Positions 2,419-64,000 of a stretch of DNA of 64,000 bases are shown here, one piece after another (within the stretch, counting starts at the first letter, position 1; each line of letters opens with the position of its first letter). The notes under the pieces were generated by a model. That model searched no databases and was not told the origin of the DNA. It saw only the letters and a program-made list of their open reading frames with translations. The stretch is taken from assembly GCF_022846255.1 (NCBI RefSeq), contig NZ_AP025682.1; one strand, written 5' to 3'. The position numbers were made by a program, and so were the translations under genes. The DNA comes from Escherichia coli (GTDB lineage: Bacteria; Pseudomonadota; Gammaproteobacteria; Enterobacterales; Enterobacteriaceae).

Positions 2419-3345
2419 ATGAATTATTCTTTAAAGCAATTAAAGGTTTTCGTCACAGTAGCGCAGGAGAAAAGTTTTAGTCGTGCAGGAGAGCGTATCG
2501 GCCTGAGCCAGTCGGCAGTGAGTCACAGTGTGAAGGAGCTGGAAAATCATACTGGTGTTCGCCTGCTGGACAGAACCACGCGTGAAGTGGTGCTTACAGA
2601 TGCAGGGCAGCAGTTGGCTTTGCGTCTTGAGCGACTGCTGGATGAACTTAACAGCACGTTGCGCGATACCGGGCGTATGGGGCAACAACTGAGCGGAAAA
2701 GTTCGGGTCGCTGCCAGCCAGACCATTTCCGCGCATCTTATTCCGCAATGCATTGCTGAAAGCCATCGCCGCTATCCAGATATTCAGTTTGTCCTGCACG
2801 ATCGTCCGCAGCAGTGGGTGATGGAAAGTATTCGCCAGGGAGATGTCGATTTTGGCATCGTCATCGATCCAGGCCCAGTGGGCGATCTGCAATGTGAAGC
2901 GATTCTTTCCGAGCCTTTCTTTCTGCTTTGCCATCGCGATAGCGCTTTGGCCGTGGAAGATTATGTCCCCTGGCAGGCATTACAGGGAGCGAAATTGGTG
3001 TTGCAGGATTACGCGTCAGGCAGCCGACCGCTGATTGACGCAGCGCTGGCGCGCAACGGTATTCAGGCGAATATTGTGCAGGAGATTGGTCATCCGGCGA
3101 CGCTGTTCCCGATGGTAGCCGCAGGCATCGGCATCAGTATTCTTCCCGCACTGGCGCTACCATTGCCTGAAGGTAGCCCACTGGTGGTAAAGCGCATTAC
3201 GCCAGTGGTTGAACGCCAGTTGATGCTGGTGCGCAGGAAGAACCGTTCACTTTCCACCGCCGCTGAAGCGTTATGGGACGTAGTACGAGACCAGGGCAAT
3301 GCGCTAATGGCTGGGCGGGAAGGGGATCCGTTGTATCAGATATAG
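2419..3345 (+). CDS. yfeR: LysR-family transcriptional regulator
   Basis: 308-aa ORF with N-terminal HTH ([38 protein letters not shown]); position matches K-12. Confidence 0.85.
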
Positions 3346-52266: not shown

Positions 52267-52725
52267 TTATCTGGCAAGCATACGTTGTTGATGCTGTTTC
52301 ACAACACGTAAACGTAAGCTGTCATAGGCCCAATTGTAGAACATGGTATATGGTAGAAAGAAAAGGAAGAATCCTATCTCTAGTGTAAAAGCCTGTAACA
52401 GACTGACGCTCAGAATCCAGGACACCATAATGACGCCGATCGCGATAAATCCACTTTCAAAGCCCAAAGCATGGAATGCACGAACTTTTGCAGTTCGTTT
52501 TACCTGATGAGCAGGCCAGTAGCGATCAAATAGCATGTTATAGATGATATTCCAGATCATTGCAGTTGAAGCCAACAAGATAGTCATCCCGCCCATTTCG
52601 AGTATAGTTCGCTGCATTAACCATGCTGTGGTGGGGGCCAGAATCGCAGTGGCAATTCCTTCAAAGCAAATAGCGTGAAAAATACGCTCAAGTAACGATC
52701 TGTGTTGAATCGCATTATGTTGCAT
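52267..52725 (-). CDS. PACE-family efflux protein (AceI-like; two tandem bacterial-transmembrane-pair repeats)
   Basis: 152 aa, four predicted TM helices, with the signature repeated once per half: ERIFHAICFEG and VRAFHALGFESG (compare AceI RLIHAISYEG / VRILHAIGFEG). Confidence 0.8.
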   Translation of the reverse strand: MQHNAIQHRSLLERIFHAICFEGIATAILAPTTAWLMQRTILEMGGMTILLASTAMIWNIIYNMLFDRYWPAHQVKRTAKVRAFHALGFESGFIAIGVIMVSWILSVSLLQAFTLEIGFFLFFLPYTMFYNWAYDSLRLRVVKQHQQRMLAR

Positions 52726-52828
52726 AACTTACCTTTCTTACAGTTTCGACCGCGTTATGGAGTTGTGAGATTTTTATCGATTTATGTGATATATAAAAGA
52801 TAGATACCATCGAAAAAATTGATAGATT

Positions 52829-53713
52829 ATGCGTTACTCACTTGAAGCGTTAAGTACATTTGTTGAAGTGGTTTCCTGTGGCTCCTTTTCTGCTGCGGCA
52901 CGAAGATTACGTAAAAGTCAGTCCGCAGTCAGTACGTCAATTGCCAATCTTGAGGTCGATCTTGGTATATCATTATTCGATCGCTCTTCGCGAGAACCTG
53001 TGCTGACAGAGGAAGGAAAGAAAGTATTGAGTTACGTTCATGCGATTTTATCAGCCAGTGAACGTCTTGAGGAGGTGGCGGTTTCGCTTGCCGGAGAGAC
53101 TGAAGCTCGTCTGACGTTTGTGCTTTCCGATACCCTACACCCTGACTTATTAGAAGACATCATGGTGCAGTTTGATAGTCAGTTTCCACATACTGAGTTA
53201 GAGGTTTTAATTGGTGAGGATGTCGATGTCATCGATCTTTTGCAAAAAGAACGAGCGCAGATCGGCTTAATTGAGTCTCGGGAACACTACCCCACCGATA
53301 TTGGCTCAACCCGTTTACCGATGCAAGCGTGGATGGGCATTTATGTTTCGGCGTCACATCCACTGTCTGCAGAAAAAACAATCCAGCGGGAACAACTTCA
53401 TTCATGGCGAGAACTTCGTCTTAATACTTATATCGATAACCGGGAGATGATTGCCCGTGGACCGGTTTGGTCTGCACCTAACTATTTGTTGTTACTCAGT
53501 ATGGCCGTACAGGGATTTGGCTGGTGCTCTCTGCCCTGTGCTCTGGTTGAGGAGTTTGCAACAGAAAAACCGCTGGTTCAGCTCGACGTACCTGGCTGGC
53601 CAAAGGCAATTTCTATCGATCTGCTTTGGAATAAAAAATCGCCACCAGGCGCGGCTGGAAATTGGCTTAAGCATCATTTACAGCATATCAATGCCCCAAA
53701 TAGTCGAACTTAG
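52829..53713 (+). CDS. LysR-family transcriptional regulator (AceR-like), divergent from the PACE gene
   Basis: 294-aa ORF with N-terminal LysR HTH (LEALSTFVEVVSCGSFSAAARRLRKSQSAVSTSIANLE); 103-bp divergent intergenic region. Confidence 0.8.
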   Translation: MRYSLEALSTFVEVVSCGSFSAAARRLRKSQSAVSTSIANLEVDLGISLFDRSSREPVLTEEGKKVLSYVHAILSASERLEEVAVSLAGETEARLTFVLSDTLHPDLLEDIMVQFDSQFPHTELEVLIGEDVDVIDLLQKERAQIGLIESREHYPTDIGSTRLPMQAWMGIYVSASHPLSAEKTIQREQLHSWRELRLNTYIDNREMIARGPVWSAPNYLLLLSMAVQGFGWCSLPCALVEEFATEKPLVQLDVPGWPKAISIDLLWNKKSPPGAAGNWLKHHLQHINAPNSRT

Positions 53714-53834
53714 ATTAGTTAAAATATGGAATCCTGAAATAATCTCTGTTGATATGTGGAGCCATCTTCCAGGCTCCCACCTAAATCATGTTAGCAGTTC
53801 CATTTTTTTGATGATTTCCGCATGAGCATCATCG

Positions 53835-53918
53835 TTATCCCCAGCGACAAATTGAATACAAAACCAGTGCTACCGCCATTGCAATTCCTACCGTTGCGAA
53901 TGCTTCAGGCCAGCTCAT
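53835..53918 (-). CDS. hypothetical 27-aa hydrophobic peptide, start overlaps the stop of the upstream gene
   Basis: ATGA overlap with the 214-aa gene; encodes MSWPEAFATVGIAMAVALVLYSICRWG (single predicted TM helix). Confidence 0.25.
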   Translation of the reverse strand: MSWPEAFATVGIAMAVALVLYSICRWG

Positions 53919-54559
53919 TGATTCACCTCCTGCGGCGGTTCTGGTAGTGGTATCCAGAACAAGGCGTTCCCTAACCACGATAAAGTGCCGTCGCTCAACT
54001 CCACGTATTCCCCTTGCACCTGTCCTGCCATATACTCACCGTGCTTTGAATAAATTAAAATCCAATCATCTTGAGCGGGCATTCGCTCACTACAGCTTAT
54101 CCAACCACCCGGAGTTACCGGAGAGTTGCCGCGTTCTTTAATGTGCAAGCGAGGCTCACCATCTTTTGGTTCAGGCCACTGGCGCTCCATGTTGATCTTC
54201 AATTTATCTTCCATAGCAGCGGTAATTTCAGCATCGCTGATGCCAGCACGGCGCTGTGCATCCCACAACAGGAACTGCATATCAGCCCACTCGCTGAGAT
54301 CGTCTGGTTCGGCTGCGGCTTCCAGAGCCTCTTTTGAGAGGTGTTTCAGTGGACCAATGGGGCCAACGCAGCCAAATGTGGAGTCAGACCATTTGGCATG
54401 CTCGTGGCGAATCTGTTCGCGTTCCAGTGAGGCGAGAGCGATTTTAAATGCTGTAAGCATGTGTGCTTGATCGTTGTCGAGTCCGAATGGCATTTCATCT
54501 CGTGCTGACTCAATACTGGTAATCGTATTTTGTAGCCATTCTTTGGTAAAAGTGCTCAT
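53915..54559 (-). CDS. prophage protein with MazG-like nucleotide pyrophosphohydrolase N-terminal domain (DUF550-like) and DUF551-like C-terminal domain
   Basis: 214-aa ORF; N-terminal acidic helices (EALEAAAEPDDLSEWADMQFLLWDAQRR) and C-terminal DUF551-like segment; common in enterobacterial prophages. Confidence 0.55.
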   Translation of the reverse strand: MSTFTKEWLQNTITSIESARDEMPFGLDNDQAHMLTAFKIALASLEREQIRHEHAKWSDSTFGCVGPIGPLKHLSKEALEAAAEPDDLSEWADMQFLLWDAQRRAGISDAEITAAMEDKLKINMERQWPEPKDGEPRLHIKERGNSPVTPGGWISCSERMPAQDDWILIYSKHGEYMAGQVQGEYVELSDGTLSWLGNALFWIPLPEPPQEVNQ

Positions 54560-54927
54560 CGTAAAATATCCTCTATACTGGTAAGTCCTTCATTATTTAG
54601 CCAGATCATGGCGTCATCCGGCAACTTGCTGTCTGGTTTGGCGTTTTTGAGAGAGGAACTCAGTCGCTTAATCCACATTGTCACCTCAGTAATGCGCCTG
54701 TCTTTGCCTTCCAGCTCAACACGCAGCTTCCCTACTGTTAGCGCAATATCCTCGTTCTCCTGGTCGCGGCGTTTGATGTATTGCTGGTTTCTTTCCCGTT
54801 CATCCAGCAGTTCCAGCACAATCGATGGTGTTATCAATTTATGGAAAAGGTCTGCGTCAAATCCCCAGTCGTCATGCATTGCCTGCTCTGCCGCTTCACG
54901 CAGTGCCTGAGAGTTAATTTCGCTCAC
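54556..54927 (-). CDS. Ead/Ea22-like prophage early protein (123 aa)
   Basis: Acidic coiled-coil protein; start overlaps the stop of the upstream zinc-finger gene. Confidence 0.5.
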   Translation of the reverse strand: MSEINSQALREAAEQAMHDDWGFDADLFHKLITPSIVLELLDERERNQQYIKRRDQENEDIALTVGKLRVELEGKDRRITEVTMWIKRLSSSLKNAKPDSKLPDDAMIWLNNEGLTSIEDILR

Positions 54928-55145
54928 TTCGAACCTCTCTGTTTACTGATAAGCTCCAGATCTTCCTGGCAACTTGCACAAGTCCGACAACCCTGAACGG
55001 CCAGGCGTCTTCGCTCATCTATGGGATCGCCACACTCACAACAATGAGTGGCAGATACAGCCTGGTGGTTCAGACGACGCATTTTTATTGCTGTATTGCG
55101 CTGTAATTCTTCGATTTCTGATGCTGAATCAATGATGTCTGCCAT
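54924..55145 (-). CDS. TraR/DksA-family C4 zinc-finger protein (lambda Orf73-like)
   Basis: 73-aa ORF with CxxC-N17-CxxC (CCECG...CRTCASC). Confidence 0.65.
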   Translation of the reverse strand: MADIIDSASEIEELQRNTAIKMRRLNHQAVSATHCCECGDPIDERRRLAVQGCRTCASCQEDLELISKQRGSK

Positions 55146-55243
55146 CTTCCATTAATCCCTGAATTGTTGGTTAATACGCTTGAGGGTGAATGCGAACAAT
55201 AAAAAAGGAGCCTGTAGCTCCCTGATGATTTTGCTTTTCATGT

Positions 55244-55525
55244 TCACCGTTCCTTAAAGACGCCATTTAACATGCCGATCGCCAGGCTTAAATGAGTCGG
55301 TGTGAATCCCATCAGCGTTACCGTTTCGCGGTGCTTCTTCAGTACGCTACGGCAAATGTCATCGACGTTTTTATCCGGAAACTGCTGTCTGGCATTTTTG
55401 ATTTCAGAATTAGCCTGACGGGCAATGCTGCGAAGGGCGTTTTCTTGCTGAGGTGTCATTGAACAAGTCCCATGTCGGCAAGCATAAGCACACAGAATTT
55501 GAAGCCCGCTGCCAGAAAAATGCAT
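55244..55525 (-). CDS. hypothetical lambda-type early-left protein (start may be the internal Met at 55459, giving 71 aa)
   Basis: Track ORF in the block between the TraR-like gene and exo. Confidence 0.4.
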   Translation of the reverse strand: MHFSGSGLQILCAYACRHGTCSMTPQQENALRSIARQANSEIKNARQQFPDKNVDDICRSVLKKHRETVTLMGFTPTHLSLAIGMLNGVFKER

Positions 55526-55535
55526 TCAGTGGTTG

Positions 55536-55727
55536 TCATACCTGGTCTCTCTCATCTGCTTCTGCTTTCGCCACCATCATTTCCAGCTTTTGTGAAAGGG
55601 ATGTGGCTAACGTATGAAATTCTTCGTCTGTTTCTACTGGTATTGGCACAAACCTGACTCCAATTTGAGCAAGGCTATGTGCCATCTCAATACTCGTTCT
55701 TAACTTAACAGGAGATGCTTTGTGCAT
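55536..55727 (-). CDS. hypothetical lambda-type early-left protein (63 aa)
   Basis: Track ORF; position equivalent to lambda orf63. Confidence 0.4.
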   Translation of the reverse strand: MHKASPVKLRTSIEMAHSLAQIGVRFVPIPVETDEEFHTLATSLSQKLEMMVAKAEADERDQV

Positions 55728-55888
55728 ATCGCCTCCCGTTTATTATTTATCTCCTCAGCCAGCCGCTGGGCTTTCAGTGGATTTTGGATAACAGAAAGGC
55801 CGGGAAATACCCAGCCTCGCTTTGTAACGGAGTAGACGAAAGTGATCGCACCTACCCGGATATTATCGTGAGGATGCGTCATCGCCAT
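55700..55888 (-). CDS. hypothetical lambda-type early-left protein (62 aa)
   Basis: Track ORF directly after exo; position equivalent to lambda orf60a. Confidence 0.35.
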
Positions 55889-56559
55889 TGCTCCCCAAAT
55901 ACAAAACCAATTTCAGCCAGTGCCTCGTCCATTTTTTCGATGAACTCCGGCACCATCTCGTCAAAACTCGCCATGTACTTTTCATCCTGCTCAATCACGA
56001 CATAATGCAGGCCTTCACGCTTCATCCGCGGGTCATAGTTAGCAAAGTACCAGGCATCTTTTCGTGTCACCCACATGCTGTACTGCACCTGGGCCATGTA
56101 AGCCGACTTTATGGCCTCGAAACCACCGAGCCGGAATTTCATGAAATCCCGGGAGGTAAACGGGCATTTCAGTTCAAGGCCGTTGCCGTCACTGCATAAA
56201 CCATCGGGAGAGCAGGCGGTGCGCATACTTTCGTCGCGATAGATGATCGGGGATTCATTAACATTCACGCCGGAAGTGAACTCAAAGAGGGCTCTGGCGT
56301 CGTTCTCGTACTGTTTTCCCCAGGCCAGCGCCTTAGCGTTAACTTCCGGAGCCACACCGGTGCAAACCTCGGCAAGCAGGGTGTGGAAGTAGGACATTTT
56401 CATGTCAGGCCATTTCTTTCCGGAGCGGGGTTTTGCTATCACATTGTGAACTTCTGAAGCGGTGATGATGCCGAGCCGTAATTTGTGCCATGCATCATCC
56501 CCCTGTTCGACAGCTCTCACGTCGATCCCGGTACGCTGCAGGATAATGTCCGGTGTCAT
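55879..56559 (-). CDS. exo: lambda-type 5'-3' exonuclease (Red-alpha)
   Basis: 226-aa ORF near-identical to lambda Exo as I recall it ([30 protein letters not shown]...). Confidence 0.93.
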
Positions 56560-57341
56560 GCTGCCACCTTCTGCTCAGTGGCTTTCTGTTTCAGGAATCC
56601 AAGAGCTTTCACTGCTTCGGCCTGTGTCAGTTCTGACGATGCGCGAATGTCGCGGCGAAATATCTGGGAACAGAGCGGCAATAAGTCGTCATCCCATGTT
56701 TTATCCAGGGCAATCAGCAGAGTGTTAATCTCCTGCATGGTTTCATCGTTAACCGGAGTGATGTCGCGTTCCGGCTGACGTTCTGCAGTGTATGCGGTAT
56801 TTTCGACAATGCGCTCGGCTTCATCCTTGTCATAGATACCAGCAAATCCGAAGGCCAGACGGGCACACTGAATCATGGCTTTATGCCGTAACATCCGTTT
56901 GGGATGCGACTGCCACGGTCCGGTGATTTCTCTGCCTTCGCGGGTTTTGAATGGTTCGCGGCGGCATTCATCCATCCACTCGGTAACGCAGATAGGATGA
57001 TTGCGGTCTTTGCGGTAAATCCGGCATGTGCAGGATTCGTTGTCCTGTTCAAAGTCCATGCCGTCAAACTGCTGGTTTTCGTTGATGATGCGGGACCAGC
57101 CATCAACGCCCACCACCGGAACGATGCCGTTCTGCTTATCAGGGAAGGCGTAAATTTCTTTCGTCCACGGATTAAGGCCGTATTGGTTGGCGACGATCAG
57201 CAATGCGATGAACTGCGCATCGCTGGCATCGCCTTTAAATGCTGTCTGGCGAAGAGTGGTGATCAGTTCCTGTGGGTCGACAGAATCCATGCCGACACGT
57301 TCAGCCAGCTTCCCAGCCAGCGTTGCGAGTGCTGTACTCAT
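56556..57341 (-). CDS. bet: lambda-type single-strand annealing protein (Red-beta)
   Basis: 261-aa ORF near-identical to lambda Bet; start overlaps exo. Confidence 0.93.
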
Positions 57342-57346
57342 CCGTT

Positions 57347-57643
57347 TTATACCTCTAAATCAATATCAACCTGGTGGTGAGCAATGGTTTCAACCATGTA
57401 CCGGATGTGTTCTGCCATGCGCTCCTGAAACTCAACATCGTCATCAAACGCACGGGTAATGGCTTTTTTGCTGGCCCCGTGACGTTGCAAATGATCGATG
57501 CAGAGCGATTCAAACAAATGCTGGGGCAGACCCTTTTCCAGGTCGTCTGCCAGTTCTGCCTCTTTCTCTTCACAGGCGATCTGCTGGTAGTGACGCGCCC
57601 AGCTCTGAGCCTCAAGACGATCCTGAATGTAATAAGCGTTCAT
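57347..57643 (-). CDS. gam: RecBCD inhibitor Gam
   Basis: 98-aa ORF near-identical to lambda GamS ([21 protein letters not shown]...). Confidence 0.9.
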
Positions 57644-57718
57644 GGCTGAACTCCTGAAAATGGCTGTGAAAATATCGCCCGCGAAATGCCAGGCTGATTA
57701 GGAAAACAGGAAAGGGGA

Positions 57719-58009
57719 TTAGTGATTCAGGCCGTTACCGCGTCCGTCGAGAAAAACTTCCACGAGCAAATCACGGGTATAAGTGCGCTCGATGCCGCGA
57801 TGCAGATATAGCCGTCCGCGTAAATTAGCTGATGCAGTCCAGGTACCATCTTTGTGTTTGACCAGCATTCCTGGCATGACCGCACCGCGATTAACGGTCT
57901 GCGTTCCGTAATGTTGATGAACCATAAAAACTCCTGCCCGTAAGCTGGGCTGCTGAACATATAGAGACTTCTGCGCGTATTCAGGCGGTGGATGGCCGCC
58001 GGTTGTCAT
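57719..58009 (-). CDS. hypothetical protein (96 aa), first ORF of the leftward early operon
   Basis: Track ORF preceded by a GAGG ribosome-binding site; matches nothing I recognise from lambda (not N, Kil or CIII). Confidence 0.45.
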
Positions 58010-58059
58010 AACTAAGCCGCCTCGTTGAAGCGACTAAGGTATGAAATGTTGAGTTGATT

Positions 58060-58210
58060 TCAGCTGGTCACACCGACGTTCACGCGTCCGTTTCACCCCT
58101 CGCACTCCCCGAAGCCTGCTGAAATTCAAACTGCGGATCTAAGCGGTCATCGCAACGGTGAATCAGGTGGTTGCCGTATCGTTGTGTTGTTGCGATGAAC
58201 TTATTTAAAA
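58060..58210 (-). ncRNA. structured 5' leader of the leftward early transcript (two long inverted repeats); candidate cis-acting regulatory RNA
   Basis: 9-bp perfect inverted repeat CATCGCAAC/GTTGCGATG (58159-58167 / 58200-58208) and 8-bp inverted repeat ATTTCAGC/GCTGAAAT (58068-58075 / 58129-58136), between the predicted pL and the 96-aa ORF. Confidence 0.3.
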
Positions 58211-58213
58211 CTA

Positions 58214-58256
58214 TAGTTGTTTTATCGTCAACAACAAAAGTTGTTTTATTGGTTGT
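58214..58256 (-). promoter_or_regulatory. candidate pL with overlapping operators (-35 TTGACG, 17-bp spacer, -10 TTAAAT; palindromes AACAAC-N4-GTTGTT and TAAAAC-N7-GTTTTA)
   Basis: Minus-strand hexamers at 58237-58242 and 58214-58219; this cassette is almost a copy of the pR cassette at 59252-59287. Confidence 0.5.
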
Positions 58257-58383
58257 TTTAGATATAACTGGTTGTATTTAGGATGGATTTATTTTGTGAC
58301 TTGAATCGCATAGCGATAACTGAAGCGAGGTTATGGTGGTTTTTTTAACGGTGTGTGTGATGAGGGGAGGGCAAAAGAAAACC

Positions 58384-58410
58384 CGGCACGGTGACCGGGA
58401 TTCTTACGCC
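58384..58410 (-). terminator. rho-independent terminator downstream of the repressor gene
   Basis: Minus-strand hairpin cccggtcaccgtgccggg followed by TTTTCTTTT. Confidence 0.6.
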
Positions 58411-58520
58411 GTTAGGTAAAGATATTATTGCGGTGGCTTAATATTACTACCTAGAGCAAAGATAGGAATTAGTTCTTTACTGAATGAGCACAATGCCCAG
58501 TTGATAATTTTTAATTGGTA

Positions 58521-59210
58521 CTACCCATGCTTCCTATATGTCTGCGGCATGCTCCCAATAACCTTACCGAAGATGAACACCCGGTTCATCTCGTCTTTCT
58601 CGATCGGGTCCCACGGTGAGTAGCTTTTGTTATCAGAGATGACCAGCAGCTTATCCTTCATCATTTGCAGGCGCTTTACATGGGCTGTGTCGTCGTACAG
58701 AAACGCATAGATACCATCACCGTCGAAAGATTTAACTGTGATATCAACGAACAGCAGATCACCTGGTTCGATCGTTCCTGACATGCTGTCACCACGCACG
58801 TTAATGATGCGGATATTTTCCGCCTTCCTACCATCGAACATGTGACGAGCATCGTCAAACGAGTACTCAACCGAGCGTAGAACTTCTACAAACTCACGGT
58901 TGATGACTCCCGGCCCAGCACTGACTTCTATATCAAGAACGTCAATCTTAAAGTATTTGGAATGGCTGACAGTTGATAGTATTGGTTGCACTGTACTGTC
59001 TGACATATTTCCAACGCCAGAAGATAACCATTCTGCGCGCACACCCAAAGCGTTCGCGATCTCCACGATTTTAGTTGTTTGATTAGCTTTCCCTGTTTCG
59101 ATTTTCTGAATAGCAGCCTGGCTAACCCCGACCAAATCCCCAAGCGCCTTTTGTGTAAGGCCTCGCGCTAATCTGGCTTCTTTAAGTCTTTCTGAGAGTG
59201 TTGTTTTCAT
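58521..59210 (-). CDS. cI: CI-like prophage repressor (XRE-type HTH plus S24 LexA-like peptidase domain)
   Basis: 229 aa from the Met at 59210 (track ORF extends to 59273); HTH LTQKALGDLVGVSQAAIQKIE; C-terminal GDSM...K autocleavage-type domain; start lacks a Shine-Dalgarno, consistent with a leaderless pRM-type mRNA. Confidence 0.85.
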   Translation of the reverse strand: MKTTLSERLKEARLARGLTQKALGDLVGVSQAAIQKIETGKANQTTKIVEIANALGVRAEWLSSGVGNMSDSTVQPILSTVSHSKYFKIDVLDIEVSAGPGVINREFVEVLRSVEYSFDDARHMFDGRKAENIRIINVRGDSMSGTIEPGDLLFVDITVKSFDGDGIYAFLYDDTAHVKRLQMMKDKLLVISDNKSYSPWDPIEKDEMNRVFIFGKVIGSMPQTYRKHG

Positions 59211-59216
59211 AGTCCA

Positions 59217-59287
59217 AATGTACAACCAAGGTTTTATTCCATCAAACGAAAATGGTTGTTGACTAAAAAACAACCATAGTTTTAATC
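59217..59287. promoter_or_regulatory. cI-cro divergent control region: candidate pRM (minus; -35 TTGATG, -10 TACATT), pR (plus; -35 TTGACT, -10 TTAATC) and operator palindrome ATGGTTGTT-N8-AACAACCAT
   Basis: 26-bp palindrome 59252..59277 overlapping the pR -35; pRM -10 ends 7 bp before the cI ATG. Confidence 0.5.
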
Positions 59288-59315
59288 TTGATTCAAATTA
59301 ACCACGGAGGTTGTT

Positions 59316-59546
59316 ATGAACCCAGCTATCAAAACAGCGATCAATATCGTTGGTTCACAAAAGAAACTGGGCGCTGCTTGCGAAGTTTCACAGCAGGCCG
59401 TCTATAAGTGGCTTCACAACAAAGCAAAGGTATCCCCTGAACATGTCGGCAGCATTGTTACGGCTACTGGTGGAGTAGTGAAGGCATACCAGATTCGCCC
59501 GGATCTTCCGAAGTTGTTTCCACACACCGAAAAGAACGCAGCTTAA
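59316..59546 (+). CDS. cro: Cro-like repressor (76 aa)
   Basis: Small HTH protein divergent from cI with a GGAGG ribosome-binding site. Confidence 0.7.
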   Translation: MNPAIKTAINIVGSQKKLGAACEVSQQAVYKWLHNKAKVSPEHVGSIVTATGGVVKAYQIRPDLPKLFPHTEKNAA

Positions 59547-59615
59547 ATTTCCATTTCACGCTCTTTAACAATAAGCAATCAACTTAACAGTCAATTCAAA
59601 CTAAAGGAGTCAATT

Positions 59616-60155
59616 ATGCAACCACTTACATACCAACAGACTAGCGGATTTAGCCCGACTGCGGTGATAAATCGTTCTCAAACAAAACAGGCGCCAGGCC
59701 ACGAAAAAATCCGTGATGCCGTTCGCGCCTGGTCGGCTGCAGATAATCAGGATGTTGTTGCCGCACTCATTGTGAATGAGTATCGGGAGCAGGGCGGCGG
59801 CACCATCGATTTCCCTGATGATGTCAGCCGTGCACGCCAGAAGCTGTTCCGCTTCCTCGATAACAAATTCGATTCTGAAAAATACCGAAATAACGTGCGT
59901 GAACTGACCCCGGCAATTCTGGCGGTACTACCGCTGGAATATCGCGGCCACCTGGTTGAGCAGGATAGCTTCATGGCTCGGTTGGCTGAAATGGATAAGG
60001 AACTCAGTGAGGCAAAGCAGGCGGTCATTCTCAACGCACCACGCCACCAGAAACTGAAGGAAATGAGTGAAGGTATTGTGTCGATGTTTCGTGTGGACCC
60101 GGATCTGGCTGGTCCATTAATGGCGATGGTTACCACCATGCTGGGGGCAATATGA
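59616..60155 (+). CDS. CII-like phage regulatory protein (CP76-type, 179 aa)
   Basis: Position between cro and O; family assignment is from memory and uncertain. Confidence 0.45.
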   Translation: MQPLTYQQTSGFSPTAVINRSQTKQAPGHEKIRDAVRAWSAADNQDVVAALIVNEYREQGGGTIDFPDDVSRARQKLFRFLDNKFDSEKYRNNVRELTPAILAVLPLEYRGHLVEQDSFMARLAEMDKELSEAKQAVILNAPRHQKLKEMSEGIVSMFRVDPDLAGPLMAMVTTMLGAI

Positions 60156-61171
60156 CAGGTTCAGAAATGGCGAAAGCCGGTCTGCGGGAACAGAGCCGAC
60201 TTTCAGGTGCAAATCGTAACGCACTCATTGCGGAAGGAATTATGGCAAACACTGCTGAGATATTCAATTTTCCAGTGCCGGATGAGGCACAAAAGGAGCC
60301 GCGCGTGGCAGATCTCGATGATGGTTATACGCGCATTGCAAATGAGTTGCTGGAAGCTGTGATGCTGGCCGGATTAACACAGCACCAGCTTCTGGTCTTC
60401 CTGGCTGTCATGCGCAAAACATATGGCTTTAATAAAAAACTGGATTGGGTGAGCAACGAGCAACTGTCCGAATTGACCGGGATATTGCCGCACAAGTGTT
60501 CTGCTGCAAAAAGTGTTCTGGTAAAGCGTGGGATTTTGATTCAGAGCGGGCGGAATATCGGTATTAATAATGTGGTCAGTGAATGGGCAACATTACCCGA
60601 ATCAGGTAAGAAAAATAAAGTTTACCTGAAAGAGGTAAATTTACCTGAATCAGGTAAGAAAAGTTTACCCAAATCAGGTAAAGGCGTTTACCCGAATCAG
60701 GTAAACACAAAAGACAAACTAACAAAAGACAATATAAAACCTTTTTCGTCAGAGAATTCTGGCGAATCCTCTGACCAACCAGAAAACGATCTTCCTGTGG
60801 TGAAACCAGATGCTGCAATTCAGAGCGGCAGCAAGTGGGGGACAGCAGAAGACCTGACCGCCGCAGAGTGGATGTTTGACATGGTGAAGACCATCGCGCC
60901 ATCAGCCAGAAAACCGAATTTTGCAGGGTGGGCTAACGATATCCGCCTGATGCGTGAACGTGACGGACGTAACCACCGCGACATGTGCGTGCTGTTCCGC
61001 TGGGCATGCCAGGACAACTTCTGGTCCGGTAACGTGCTGAGTCCGGCCAAACTCCGCGACAAGTGGACCCAGCTCGAAATCAACCGAAACAAGCAACAGG
61101 CTGGCGTGACAGCCGGCAAACCAAAACTCGACCTGACGAACACTGACTGGATTTACGGGGTGGATTTATGA
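60152..61171 (+). CDS. O: replication initiator O (divergent N-terminal iteron-binding domain, lambda-like C-terminus)
   Basis: 339-aa ORF; C-terminal 120 aa near-identical to lambda O; internal iterons at 60594-60706. Confidence 0.88.
   Translation: MTGSEMAKAGLREQSRLSGANRNALIAEGIMANTAEIFNFPVPDEAQKEPRVADLDDGYTRIANELLEAVMLAGLTQHQLLVFLAVMRKTYGFNKKLDWVSNEQLSELTGILPHKCSAAKSVLVKRGILIQSGRNIGINNVVSEWATLPESGKKNKVYLKEVNLPESGKKSLPKSGKGVYPNQVNTKDKLTKDNIKPFSSENSGESSDQPENDLPVVKPDAAIQSGSKWGTAEDLTAAEWMFDMVKTIAPSARKPNFAGWANDIRLMRERDGRNHRDMCVLFRWACQDNFWSGNVLSPAKLRDKWTQLEINRNKQQAGVTAGKPKLDLTNTDWIYGVDL
60594..60706 (+). repeat. ori iterons inside the O gene (four or five copies of TTACC[CT][GA]AATCAGGTAA[AG] with 23-24 bp periodicity) followed by an A-rich tract
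   Basis: Direct repeats read at 60594, 60621 (degenerate), 60641, 60664 and 60688. Confidence 0.8.
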
Positions 61172-61869
61172 AAAACATCGCCGCACAGATGGTTAACTTT
61201 GACCGTGAGCAGATGCGCCGGATCGCCAACAATATGCCGGAACAGTACGACGAAAAGCCGCACGTACAGCAGGTAGCGCAGATCATCAATGGTGTGTTCA
61301 GCCAGTTACTGGCAACTTTCCCTGCGAGCCTGGCTAACCGGGATCAGAACGAACTGAACGAAATCCGCCGCCAGTGGGTTCTGGCTTTCCGGGAAAACGG
61401 GATCACCACAATGGAACAGGTTAACGCAGGAATGCGCGTAGCCCGTCGGCAGAATCGACCATTCCTGCCATCACCCGGGCAGTTTGTTGCCTGGTGCCGG
61501 GAAGAAACATCCGTTACCGCCGGGCTGCCAAACGCCAGCGAGCTGGTTGATATGGTTTACGAGTATTGCCGGAAGCGTGGCCTGTATCCGGACGCAGAGT
61601 CTTATCCATGGAAATCAAACGCGCACTACTGGCTGGTTACCAACCTGTACCAGAACATGCGGGCCAATGCGCTGACTGACGCGGAATTACGGCGTAAAGC
61701 TGCCGATGAGCTGACCTGTATGACCGCGCGAATTAACCGTGGTGAGGCGATACCTGAACCAGTAAAACAACTTCCTGTCATGGGCGGTAGACCTCTAAAT
61801 CGTGCACAGGCTCTGGCGAAGATCGCAGAAATCAAAGCTAAGTTTGGGCTGAAAGGAGCAAGGGTATGA
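61168..61869 (+). CDS. P: replication protein P (DnaB helicase loader)
   Basis: 233-aa ORF near-identical to lambda P; start overlaps O. Confidence 0.92.
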   Translation: MKNIAAQMVNFDREQMRRIANNMPEQYDEKPHVQQVAQIINGVFSQLLATFPASLANRDQNELNEIRRQWVLAFRENGITTMEQVNAGMRVARRQNRPFLPSPGQFVAWCREETSVTAGLPNASELVDMVYEYCRKRGLYPDAESYPWKSNAHYWLVTNLYQNMRANALTDAELRRKAADELTCMTARINRGEAIPEPVKQLPVMGGRPLNRAQALAKIAEIKAKFGLKGARV

Positions 61870-62168
61870 CGGGCAAAGAGGCAATTATTCATTACCTGGG
61901 GACTCATAAGAACTTCTGTGCGCAGGACGTTGCCGTGGTAACAGGCGCAACCGTAACCAGCATAAATCAGGCTGCGGCTAAAATGGCACGGGCAGGTCTT
62001 CTGGTTATCGAAGGTAAGGTCTGGCGAACGGTGTATTACCGGTTTGCTACCAGGGAAGAACGGGAAGGAAAGATGAGCACGAACCTGATTTTTAAGGAGT
62101 GTCGCCAGAGTGCCGCGATGAAACGGGTATTGAGGGTATATAAAAGAACATCAATGGGTACACAATGA
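61866..62168 (+). CDS. ren: Ren protein (100 aa)
   Basis: Near-identical to lambda Ren (MTGKEAIIHYLGTH...); start overlaps P. Confidence 0.85.
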   Translation: MTGKEAIIHYLGTHKNFCAQDVAVVTGATVTSINQAAAKMARAGLLVIEGKVWRTVYYRFATREEREGKMSTNLIFKECRQSAAMKRVLRVYKRTSMGTQ

Positions 62169-62235
62169 TGAAACAGATGAGTTGAGTTCAAACTGTAGTA
62201 CAATTCTCTCCAGTTTGAACAGGAAAGAATATGCT

Positions 62236-62568
62236 ATGAATCCTTATATTTATCTTGGTGGTGCAATACTTGCAGAGGTCATTGGTACAACCTTAATGAA
62301 GTTTTCAGAAGGTTTTACACGGTTATGGCCATCTGTTGGTACAATTATTTGTTATTGTGCATCATTCTGGTTATTAGCTCAGACGCTGGCTTATATTCCT
62401 ACAGGGATTGCTTATGCTATCTGGTCAGGAGTCGGTATTGTCCTGATTAGCTTACTATCATGGGGATTTTTCGGCCAACGGCTGGACCTGCCAGCTATTA
62501 TAGGCATGATGTTGATTTGTGCCGGTGTGTTGGTTATTAATTTATTTTCACGAAGCACACCACATTAA
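62236..62568 (+). CDS. emrE: SMR-family multidrug efflux protein EmrE (110 aa)
   Basis: MNPYIYLGGAILAEVIGTTLMKFSEGF... with the conserved Glu14; track ORF 62182..62568 trimmed to this Met. Confidence 0.9.
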   Translation: MNPYIYLGGAILAEVIGTTLMKFSEGFTRLWPSVGTIICYCASFWLLAQTLAYIPTGIAYAIWSGVGIVLISLLSWGFFGQRLDLPAIIGMMLICAGVLVINLFSRSTPH

Positions 62569-62601
62569 AAATAATTTCTTTTGAATCGAGTGAAATAGGT
62601 T

Positions 62602-62629
62602 AGCCCGCATAAGTGCGGGCTGCTTTTTA
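62602..62629. terminator. bidirectional rho-independent terminator between emrE and the convergent esterase gene
   Basis: Hairpin agcccgcataagtgcgggct followed by a T-run. Confidence 0.6.
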
Positions 62630-63670
62630 CAGGTCAGCGTTTGTTTTTTGTTGTTGGGTAGCGGTTTTTATGGGGGTTCCCAGGTTTTTAGTAAACCACT
62701 CAACAACTCTGTTTATAATAATTGGCTGATACCATGTATTATCTCCATGCTCAGCCCCTTCTACCAGAACGTACTCAGCGTTATCGCCGTTCTTCTTCAA
62801 CATCCTGAATAGTTTGGCGCTTTGCTCAGGTGAAACCAGAGTGTCTTTGCTACCATGCATAATAAGAAATGGGGGGTTTACTCCTTTCATATGTCCGATT
62901 GGACTGGCGTTTAGCGCTTTTTCTTTTGACGCTGTTATGGGGGCTCCCGCAAAACTTCTGAATGCAGGGCCATTGATCATTAAGGCTTCGGTTACGGCAG
63001 GAGATCGATGAACCTCCTGCACAGATTCAGGGAACCCCTCGCCAATATTCAACAAGTCAGAAATCCCATAAAGTGTGGCAACTGCCTGAACATCTGCTGA
63101 TTGCTGAAGAAAGTCACCTTTATCAAAGGTTTTGTCACCATTTGTAGTTCCCATCATCTGGGCAAGCCATCCACCGGCAGAGTCACCCAGAACTCCGATT
63201 CTTTGAGGATCAATCCCATAATCGCTGGCATGTTCTCTCAAGTAACGTATTGCAGCTTTCCCATCCTCAACTGGTGCTGGAAATGTATCAGGAATTGTTC
63301 TGTATTCTACAGCGGCCACAACAAAACCAGCTTCAGCCAGAGCCATTCTCATTTCAATAAATTTGTCATGTTCAGAAGACATGAATCCGCCGCCGGGATA
63401 ATAAATAATGGCTGGTTTTAAATCATTTGTTCGTGGGACAAGAACTGACATGTGAAGCTGTCTGACAGAACGAGTTCCTTTTATCTGGGAATAAACAACA
63501 TCACCAATGAGATCGACCTGGTTTCTGGTCGGTGAAACACTAATGATATCTGCACCCGGGGTGTAACCAGGAAGATTAGTCTGGACAGGTGTTGCACAAC
63601 TCCCGACCGACATGGCCATTGACATACCATACAATAGTGTTGCAGATGATAATATCTTGTTAATTTTCAT
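62627..63670 (-). CDS. secreted or lipoprotein alpha/beta-hydrolase (esterase/lipase, hormone-sensitive-lipase-like)
   Basis: 347-aa ORF with N-terminal signal peptide ending ...SVGSC, oxyanion-hole motif YYPGGGF and nucleophile elbow GDSAGG; low GC by eye. Confidence 0.75.
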   Translation of the reverse strand: MKINKILSSATLLYGMSMAMSVGSCATPVQTNLPGYTPGADIISVSPTRNQVDLIGDVVYSQIKGTRSVRQLHMSVLVPRTNDLKPAIIYYPGGGFMSSEHDKFIEMRMALAEAGFVVAAVEYRTIPDTFPAPVEDGKAAIRYLREHASDYGIDPQRIGVLGDSAGGWLAQMMGTTNGDKTFDKGDFLQQSADVQAVATLYGISDLLNIGEGFPESVQEVHRSPAVTEALMINGPAFRSFAGAPITASKEKALNASPIGHMKGVNPPFLIMHGSKDTLVSPEQSAKLFRMLKKNGDNAEYVLVEGAEHGDNTWYQPIIINRVVEWFTKNLGTPIKTATQQQKTNADL

Positions 63671-64000
63671 GTTTTACATGCCTTGACTTATCGGATGAAA
63701 TTCTCTTACTGAATTTAACGGCAGTTTAATAGCCGTACAACTCGTGGTAGCTAGGGAAATATCCCAGTCGTGGTTAAGGTTGTACTTGACGGCTATTATT
63801 TCAACAATGCTTAAAGTGAGAGCTTAAGGTTATGCGTATGTTTTACAGTCCGAGTAGATTCTGACCAATAGCTTCTTTGTATGATTCTGTCAGAAATAAA
63901 TCTTGGCTTGCATGAAGTTTGAGACCTTATCTTGTTTGATTATGAATAATCAATTCGCCATAATTGTATCACCGGAGCCTGAACAACTTCGGTGACTTCT

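Follow-up and report, generated by a model that had tools for sequence, protein, structure and literature searches.

The kil Gene and Its Composite Leader in the Left Early Region of a Possibly N-Independent DLP12-Type Lambdoid Prophage

The closest described counterparts of the locus considered here are the N-nut systems of lambda and phi80, the put RNAs of HK022 and HK639, and the N-less left operons of Rac-like kilR-ydaE-recE prophages (YdaS/YdaT, repressor, KilR). Phages of the lambda and phi80 plan have cI, the left operators and promoter (OL/pL) and kil-gam-bet-exo, with a consensus boxA after cro, and depend on N and host Nus factors. HK022 and HK639 are N-less lambdoid phages in which an RNA element lies directly downstream of pL, and read-through of terminators by put depends on the beta-prime zinc-binding domain (PMC9378689). 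In the kilR-ydaE-recE prophages, kil comes first after pL and the right side has a YdaT-type CII analogue. We have examined a 64,000-nucleotide (nt) stretch of Escherichia coli DNA from contig NZ_AP025682.1, hereafter the window, to which all position numbers refer unless a related record (L numbers) is named; a lambdoid prophage has its early region in the part from 53.9 to 64 kb. An initial annotation had placed, between the CI-like repressor gene and gam, a structured leader thought to be an antiterminator of the HK022 put type. Our results suggest, with moderate confidence, that this locus controls left early transcription in a DLP12-type prophage operating without N, and they speak against a put RNA in its leader. 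The features are collected in Table 1.

The first gene of the pL operon is, as judged from its sequence, that of a 68-amino-acid (aa) Kil protein starting at ATG 57925. This gene had been described as a 96-aa open reading frame (ORF) with no recognisable features. The 96-aa ORF matches the Kil family phrog_294 over residues 20-96 (E = 1.2e-38) and the NCBIfam model PRK11354, "FtsZ inhibitor," with E = 4e-17 and 61.9 bits, a score below the curated cutoff of 92 bits (Rac KilR subfamily). A Pfam-A search with this ORF and with an overlapping 77-aa ORF gave no match, the release used being one without a Kil model; 129 homologues of kil carry PF27398, most are 68 aa long, and their informative names are all either cell division inhibitor or Kil. 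The protein is 75 to 85% identical to Kil of HK225, KO-TP1 and S9-5, its size lies within the range of about 68 to 73 aa that is typical of Kil in pL operons, and its gene is directly upstream of gam-bet-exo; apart from the low PRK11354 score, there is no notable difference from the Kil/KilR family. The annotation by PGAP is also a 68-aa kil.

The start codon is indicated by the pattern of polymorphism. Among 51 distinct sequences, 18 of the 20 variable sites between 57925 and 57722 are third codon positions and the changes are 21 synonymous versus 1 nonsynonymous, while the 204 nt upstream of 57925 show no codon bias in any frame and, in the kil frame, 9 synonymous versus 15 nonsynonymous changes. 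A Shine-Dalgarno sequence, AGGAG, precedes the ATG at 57925. As the coding signature begins at this internal ATG and 57926-58009 is noncoding, the 96-aa start is not used and the leader is about 270 nt long, not about 200 nt as first proposed. Two relatives bear on the longer frame. In L013 a 37-nt duplication in the leader disrupts it. In L107 its ATG is ATC and the pairing partner within hairpin 1 is altered as well (C-G to G-C), which argues for selection on the RNA structure and not on a peptide.

Deposited annotations of this gene conflict, with a 77-aa hypothetical protein in the wrong frame in PhiR34_1 (L001 4581-4814), a 128-aa Kil in PhiR47_2 (L002 4377-4763) and a 68-aa Kil elsewhere. 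The 77-aa frame (57727-57960 in the window) was rejected, as it has no family match and the coding signature lies in another frame. Most variants have CAG in place of the TAG at 58036-58034; this opens a frame from 58129 into kil and explains the 128-aa protein of PhiR47_2. The 68-aa gene is unaffected by the CAG variant, by a 5-nt duplication (TCAAC, at about 58058) and by the 37-nt duplication of L013.

Directly upstream of kil lies a conserved RNA module with three hairpins. Using nhmmer, we found this pre-kil module in 13 further distinct phages and prophages, with 72 to 97% conservation: HK225, KO-TP1, S9-5, CobraSix, HK639, phi80 and seven prophages of Citrobacter, Huaxiibacter, Siccibacter and another enterobacterium. 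An alignment of 12 sequences supports 28 base pairs, of which 11 show compensatory changes, with 94% of cells paired; none of 500 shuffled alignments scored as high. Covariation had been suggested as a check on the leader hairpins; true covariation is present in the module (58046-57926), and none was found in the promoter-proximal part (58196-58047). An Rfam scan, another suggested check, gave no match for the leader even at a permissive threshold: the cmscan of 55000-64000 with E values up to 10 returned six weak chance matches, none within 57900-58300. In other phages the module is also found downstream of N or of put and therefore cannot substitute for either.

What precedes the module distinguishes this phage type from the others. 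Outside the DLP12 type, the module always comes directly after a strong intrinsic terminator, GCCGCC..GGCGGCTTTTTT or CCCGC..GCGGGTTTTTT in form, whether the phage has N (L105, L107 and L109), put (HK639, S9-5, CobraSix, L102 and L106) or a leader of the phi80 type, annotated as putative nutL (phi80, HK225, KO-TP1 and L108). In phi80 the terminator is annotated tL1A and stands immediately after the gene annotated N, and the module is the sequence that follows (L118 3226-3367). The DLP12 type alone among the phages examined has no terminator before the module; instead, pL, a 5' hairpin and a segment of 115 nt are joined to it at 58047/58046. The phi80 tL1A has no counterpart here, in contrast to the otherwise similar plan of the operon.

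The phi80-type leader contains a boxA-like sequence, CTGCTTTTTAACAA, and is 85 to 98% identical among L093 2244-2480, L094 (about 2846-3060), L108 (about 1734-1975) and L118 2501-2710; its central 150 nt are shared by about 100 Stx2a phages. No N-like ORF was found after it in HK225, in the Klebsiella phage KO-TP1 or in the Huaxiibacter prophage. We had considered the leader of HK225, KO-TP1 and L108 as a third kind of N-less RNA and rejected this candidate, as it is the phi80-type region annotated putative nutL.

The initial annotation had listed N, CIII, Kil, Ral, SieB and RexAB as missing between the repressor gene and gam. For N, CIII, Ral, SieB and Rex this stands, whereas Kil is present. 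No ORF of the left operon or the leader matches the N family phrog_271, in a library that does detect N in L105, L107 and L109, and tblastn with four N proteins (those of L105, L107 and L109 and the annotated N of phi80) gave chance matches only in the window, in 4A7 and in PhiR34_1. An N-like gene with nut sites elsewhere on the leftward transcript would have spoken against an N-less region; none was found by the PHROG and tblastn searches, and the absence of N downstream of a genuine pL holds for the isolated phages 4A7 and PhiR34_1. In 4A7, from int to the right end, the only antiterminator is of the Q type. An arginine-rich 31-aa ORF (58129-58034), in which RTRERR resembles the lambda N motif, was tried as a mini-N and dropped: it has no PHROG match and no codon bias, and it suffers frameshifting 5-nt indels.

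The left leader contains neither boxA nor boxB. On the right, a consensus boxA follows cro as in lambda and phi80, in this case without boxB; it is confined to this immunity type and absent from 4A7. A Citrobacter relative (L107) has boxA and boxB on both sides together with an N gene. Being tied to one immunity type, the boxA after cro looks like a relic of nutR, which it probably is, and not like a general solution; the alternative is that it is an N-independent site for Nus factors.

The promoter is well supported. The initial annotation had described a sigma-70-like promoter with repeated operator-like sites upstream of the leader, and this description is borne out: the hexamers are TTGACG (-35, 58231-58226) and TTAAAT (-10, 58208-58203), separated by 17 nt, the minus strand reading TTGTTGACG-ATAAAACAACTATAGTT-TTAAAT; the 45 nt at 58205-58249 are an inverted copy, 80% complementary, of the pR region at 59241-59285; and the operator-like sites are 17-nt direct repeats spaced 24 nt apart. 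The Salmonella phage UPF_BP1 has nearly the same promoter immediately before its putL. Alignment with such promoters, in which the known start of the HK022 putL transcript (PMC9378689) was used for placement, predicts that the pL transcript starts near A58196, about 10 nt further downstream than the 58207 previously given. Among 43 leader variants from IMG/VR, three unrelated promoter and immunity types meet one and the same leader no more than a few bases from 58196, as expected of a module boundary at the transcript start.

The promoter-proximal leader consists of a 5' hairpin and an orphan core. Two long inverted repeats had been noted in it, of which the first holds up: its 10-bp perfect arms are equalled in length in only 1.4% of shuffles. 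The second, of 7 bp, is no better than chance, being equalled in 46% of shuffles. All three promoter types retain seven pairs of the first, type C by means of G.U pairs. Local alignment of the leader with put and phi80-type leaders was significant for the first 24 nt only; these are similar to the beginning of the S9-5 pL transcript before its putL (z = 4.5), which has CGAAAC/GTTTCG in place of CGCAAC/GTTGCG. In the kilR-ydaE-recE prophages the transcript likewise begins ATCG... with a small 5' hairpin, that of L114 reading ATCGACAAC...GTTGTC. We take this element for a conserved hairpin at the 5' terminus, of a kind that other N-less pL transcripts also have; its likely role, as for such hairpins in general, is in mRNA stability.

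The core (58162-58047) is found in 16 phage records only, all at least 96.6% identical, and is absent from all 15 other enterobacterial kil loci. It has no coding signature. The leader had been called structured, a description that its folding energy does not bear out: compared with shuffled sequences, z is -0.28 for the whole 274 nt, +0.31 for the first 150 nt and -1.84 for 206 nt (58005-58210). Among 40 distinct leader variants, no pair is changed on both sides, 12 pairs vary one-sidedly in a wobble-compatible manner and 2 cells are broken. In this test of covariation within the DLP12 family, the shuffle control equalled the observed value in 500 of 500 cases and is uninformative because double changes do not occur among the variants, and the wobble count is biased, these same sequences having served for choosing the RNAalifold structure. 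The core is nevertheless constrained. Nucleotide diversity is 0.024 in the core and 0.019 in the module (58046-57926), compared with 0.034 in the kil-gam spacer and 0.077 at the 4-fold sites of kil; hence, the leader is about 3- to 4-fold less diverse than the latter. Each of the 16 phage records has retained the core, which stands beside three different immunity regions and shows 5-nt indels at about 58058.

How might such a leader work? We propose that a CI-like protein represses pL at the three operator-like repeats and that the transcript from about 58196 would comprise the untranslated leader of 270 nt followed by kil-gam-bet-exo. The leader would have three parts: the 5'-terminal hairpin, which likely protects the 5' end of the mRNA; the conserved 115-nt segment, found only in this phage type; and the 120-nt module with three hairpins, which would supply the translation start region of kil. 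With pL fused to the module without N, nutL or a terminator, kil and the recombination genes could be reached without a processive antiterminator. On the simplest reading, this phage type lacks N (or put) along with the first terminator, and kil-gam-bet-exo then need no antiterminator; we infer that the joint absence of N and tL1 makes the operon N-independent and that the leader would act after transcription, on the stability or translation of the toxic kil message, and not on RNA polymerase. A precedent for the same logic with a short leader is L114, where the leader through which kil is expressed from pL is no longer than about 80 nt and is composed of a 5' hairpin and an element like hairpin 3 (L114 1940-2085). 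In the prophages of this group (L111-L117), L114 among them, kil is also the first pL gene and N is absent. They differ from the DLP12 type in that the leader may be about 80 nt, without the 115-nt core and hairpins 1 and 2, and in having recE instead of gam-bet-exo. A search of the literature on antitermination in DLP12-type or Bievrevirus phages found no account of early transcription without N or put.

Several observations weigh against operation without an antiterminator. A good terminator (55223-55205) still parts exo from the distal genes, and in 4A7 the same terminator (L003 7256-7270) stands upstream of a dksA-like gene, xis and int. In the same phage pR and Q are separated by two further good terminators, and therefore some mechanism of read-through may still be needed. 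The leader, untranslated over 270 nt and C rich in part, might also be open to Rho-dependent termination. In addition, the 115-nt core is constrained and has no role that we can attribute to it.

The best surviving alternative, which we consider unlikely, is that the 5' hairpin and the orphan core (58196-58047) form a new cis-acting antiterminator RNA, which would modify the polymerase and, like put, remain with it and suppress termination, but whose sequence is not related to that of put. Neither N nor put occurs in isolated phages of this type, the element begins right at the start of the pL transcript like putL, it is constrained relative to synonymous sites, its first 24 nt resemble the leader preceding putL in S9-5, a good terminator precedes xis and int in 4A7, and the single-nucleotide polymorphisms in its helices are mostly wobble compatible (12 pairs against 2 broken cells), a count subject to the bias noted above. 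The put model itself finds no match here. We built this covariance model (R1) from ten RNAs, the putL of HK022, HK639, S9-5, phiEt88, CobraSix, PdC23 and UPF_BP1 and three putR; it detects put RNAs on which it had not been trained in two Siccibacter colletis prophages (L102 1921-2003 and L106 1341-1423), with 97 bits each. Run over the whole window with filters off, it gave a best score of 9.4 bits (E = 0.49) at 62018-62080, inside ren, and nothing in 57900-58260. The leader lacks the conserved core of put, GAACGGC...GUCGG...GGCGGG...GGAUGA...CAAUG, along with the two covarying stems. A weak put-like match (17 bits, E = 0.0045) was seen in a Citrobacter amalonaticus prophage (L099 1959-2021). 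An alignment of the leader to putR across GAACGG...GUCGG was at chance level (z = 1.1) and was discarded.

Other points also count against an antiterminator RNA, whether of the put type or new. Its folding energy equals that of shuffles, no compensatory change occurs in the 40 variants, and homologues exist only within one closely related phage group. A second copy, like putR, was sought by blastn against the window and against the early right region of 4A7 up to lysis, and only the leader itself was returned, although more terminators stand in the right operon of 4A7. It is worth adding that no putR was found in the stretch of HK639 examined, so a second copy may not be a universal feature of put. 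Finally, the terminator that usually precedes the module is missing, which removes the most obvious need for an antiterminator, as no tL1-type terminator is left to overcome. The leader does lie where put would, directly downstream of an early promoter in a phage without N, and the promoter and operator type is close to that of the putL carrier UPF_BP1; the identification as a put-type antiterminator, as originally suggested, is not sustained. If a new antiterminator RNA did exist here, it would let the commonest type of E. coli lambdoid prophage pass the terminator before xis and int without N.

It is also unlikely, in our estimation, that 58162-58047 has no function, was left behind at a deletion or recombination joint and looks conserved only through the recent spread of this phage type. 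That the core is an orphan without homologues outside the phage group, that it shows no structure signal and that it tolerates 5-nt indels at about 58058 would all fit such an origin. The diversity of the core, about 3-fold below that of the adjacent 4-fold sites and also below that of the kil-gam spacer, would not, nor would its retention next to three immunity regions and in every phage record.

A third alternative is that the leader is an attenuator or the source of a short RNA. Hairpin 1, which is conserved, covarying and GC rich, is followed by UUAGUUAU; with this U-rich 3' side it could stop or pause most pL transcripts, yielding an RNA of about 190 nt and limiting the production of Kil, which is toxic according to its family annotation. 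The neighboring hairpin 2 is annotated as a terminator by the depositors of HK639. However, CAUAC in the lowest part of hairpin 1 pairs with this U-rich stretch, hairpin 1 was not called by the terminator scan and hairpin 2 in the window has no U run after it; we find attenuation unlikely as well. Least of all do we favor protein-binding sites in the leader DNA (for YdaT/CII-like or other regulators) or an antisense promoter, a highly improbable pair of readings for which one can cite an AATCAA half-site at 58059-58054 (YdaT of CP-933P binds TTGATTN6AATCAA; PMC9986795), a 13-nt match between the leader and the cro-ydaT spacer and a promoter-like site on the plus strand at 58190-58217, since there is no complete YdaT inverted repeat, the 13-nt match is by our estimate at chance level for its length and was rejected, and the plus-strand site falls within the operators, with fewer sites found by the promoter scan than in shuffles.

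This leader is very common in E. coli. As a 290-nt query, it was matched in 2,230 of 5,426 complete E. coli genomes (about 41%), nearly always at 95% identity or more, and is present in 16 phage records. The DLP12-type prophage at argU of E. coli 2014C-3097 has the same layout, with a leader 99 to 100% identical, and its gene content includes intD, emrE, ybcK, ybcN and ninE. The same arrangement is found in the deposited phages PhiR34_1, Turner, PhiR47_2, 4A7, 1W, 3W, D2 and Perceval.

The particular element in the window has some features of its own. Its left arm (52267-54560) continues into genes of the LysR family and for a PACE transporter; no xis or int lies in the window and no tRNA gene is nearby. 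The left-arm junction is covered in only 6 of the 5,426 complete genomes, 4 of them from soil, leaf litter or water. Judged by this arm, the element may be defective or rearranged. Between cI and pL, some relatives carry GevT/GevA genes, annotated as toxin-antitoxin (L002 2648-4076 and L003 2660-4076); the window lacks them (58260-58479), yet has the downstream spacer and terminator in common with their carriers. Weak Rfam matches, below threshold (E = 3 to 5), to MicC and to the Trp leader at 62526-62636 on the plus strand coincide with a strong terminator hairpin after the emrE-like gene, and are almost certainly merely this terminator.

Table 1. Elements of the early region and copies of the pre-kil module in related records
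Feature	Position	Strand	Remarks
Intrinsic terminator downstream of exo	55205..55223	minus	good; no other strong terminator in the path of a pL transcript within the window
exo	55879-56559	minus	
bet	56556-57341	minus	
gam	57347-57643	minus	
kil	57719..57925	minus	68-aa Kil/KilR-family cell-division (FtsZ) inhibitor; first gene of pL operon
96-aa ORF of the initial annotation	57719-58009	minus	
5' extension of the 96-aa ORF	57926..58009	minus	noncoding, 28 codons; 3' base of hairpin 1 formed by its ATG (58009-58007)
Pre-kil RNA module	57926..58046	minus	conserved, 120 nt; nhmmer and covariation; no Rfam match
Hairpin 3	57950-57936	minus	adjoins kil Shine-Dalgarno sequence (57935-57931)
Hairpin 2	58000-57984	minus	GGCGG-CCATCCA-CCGCC
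Hairpin 1	58043-58007	minus	15 pairs, 8 compensated
Orphan leader segment (core 1)	58047..58162	minus	holds second inverted repeat of the initial annotation, 58124-58118 / 58064-58058
5'-terminal hairpin	58147..58198	minus	arms 58198-58189 / 58156-58147, C-rich 32-nt loop; first inverted repeat of the initial annotation
Predicted transcription start	58196	minus	A of ATCGCAAC; seventh base after -10; promoter alignment with HK022/UPF_BP1 putL
pL	58203..58262	minus	sigma-70-like, with CI operator-like repeats (motif AAAACAAC); inverted copy of pR region
Intrinsic terminator closing the cI transcription unit	58382..58399	minus	upstream of pL; kept in relatives with GevT/GevA between cI and pL
CI-like repressor	58521-59210	minus	
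pR	59259..59287	plus	mirror of pL: TTGACT, 17-nt spacer, TTAATC
cro	59316-59546	plus	
boxA-like CGCTCTTTAACAA	59559..59571	plus	just after cro, without boxB hairpin; only exact match in the window
YdaT-type CII analogue	59616-60155	plus	
O, P, ren and emrE-like gene	60152-62568	plus	
Module copies in related records	L093 3498-3641; L094 3498-3621; L006 2497-2639; L008 3865-4003; L005 4143-4280; L118 3226-3367		also in L105, L107, L108, L109, L102 and L106

In summary, the first gene of the pL operon in this prophage type should be annotated as a 68-aa Kil. Among enterobacterial lambdoid phages, the covarying module ahead of the kil block is widespread; it lacks an Rfam match and is a candidate regulator of a toxic gene, while the constrained orphan segment of 115 nt is a defined candidate for a new regulatory RNA. 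If the simple answer is true and the left operon is transcribed without an antiterminator, this arrangement would represent one route by which lambdoid phages have left their dependence on N and the host Nus factors.

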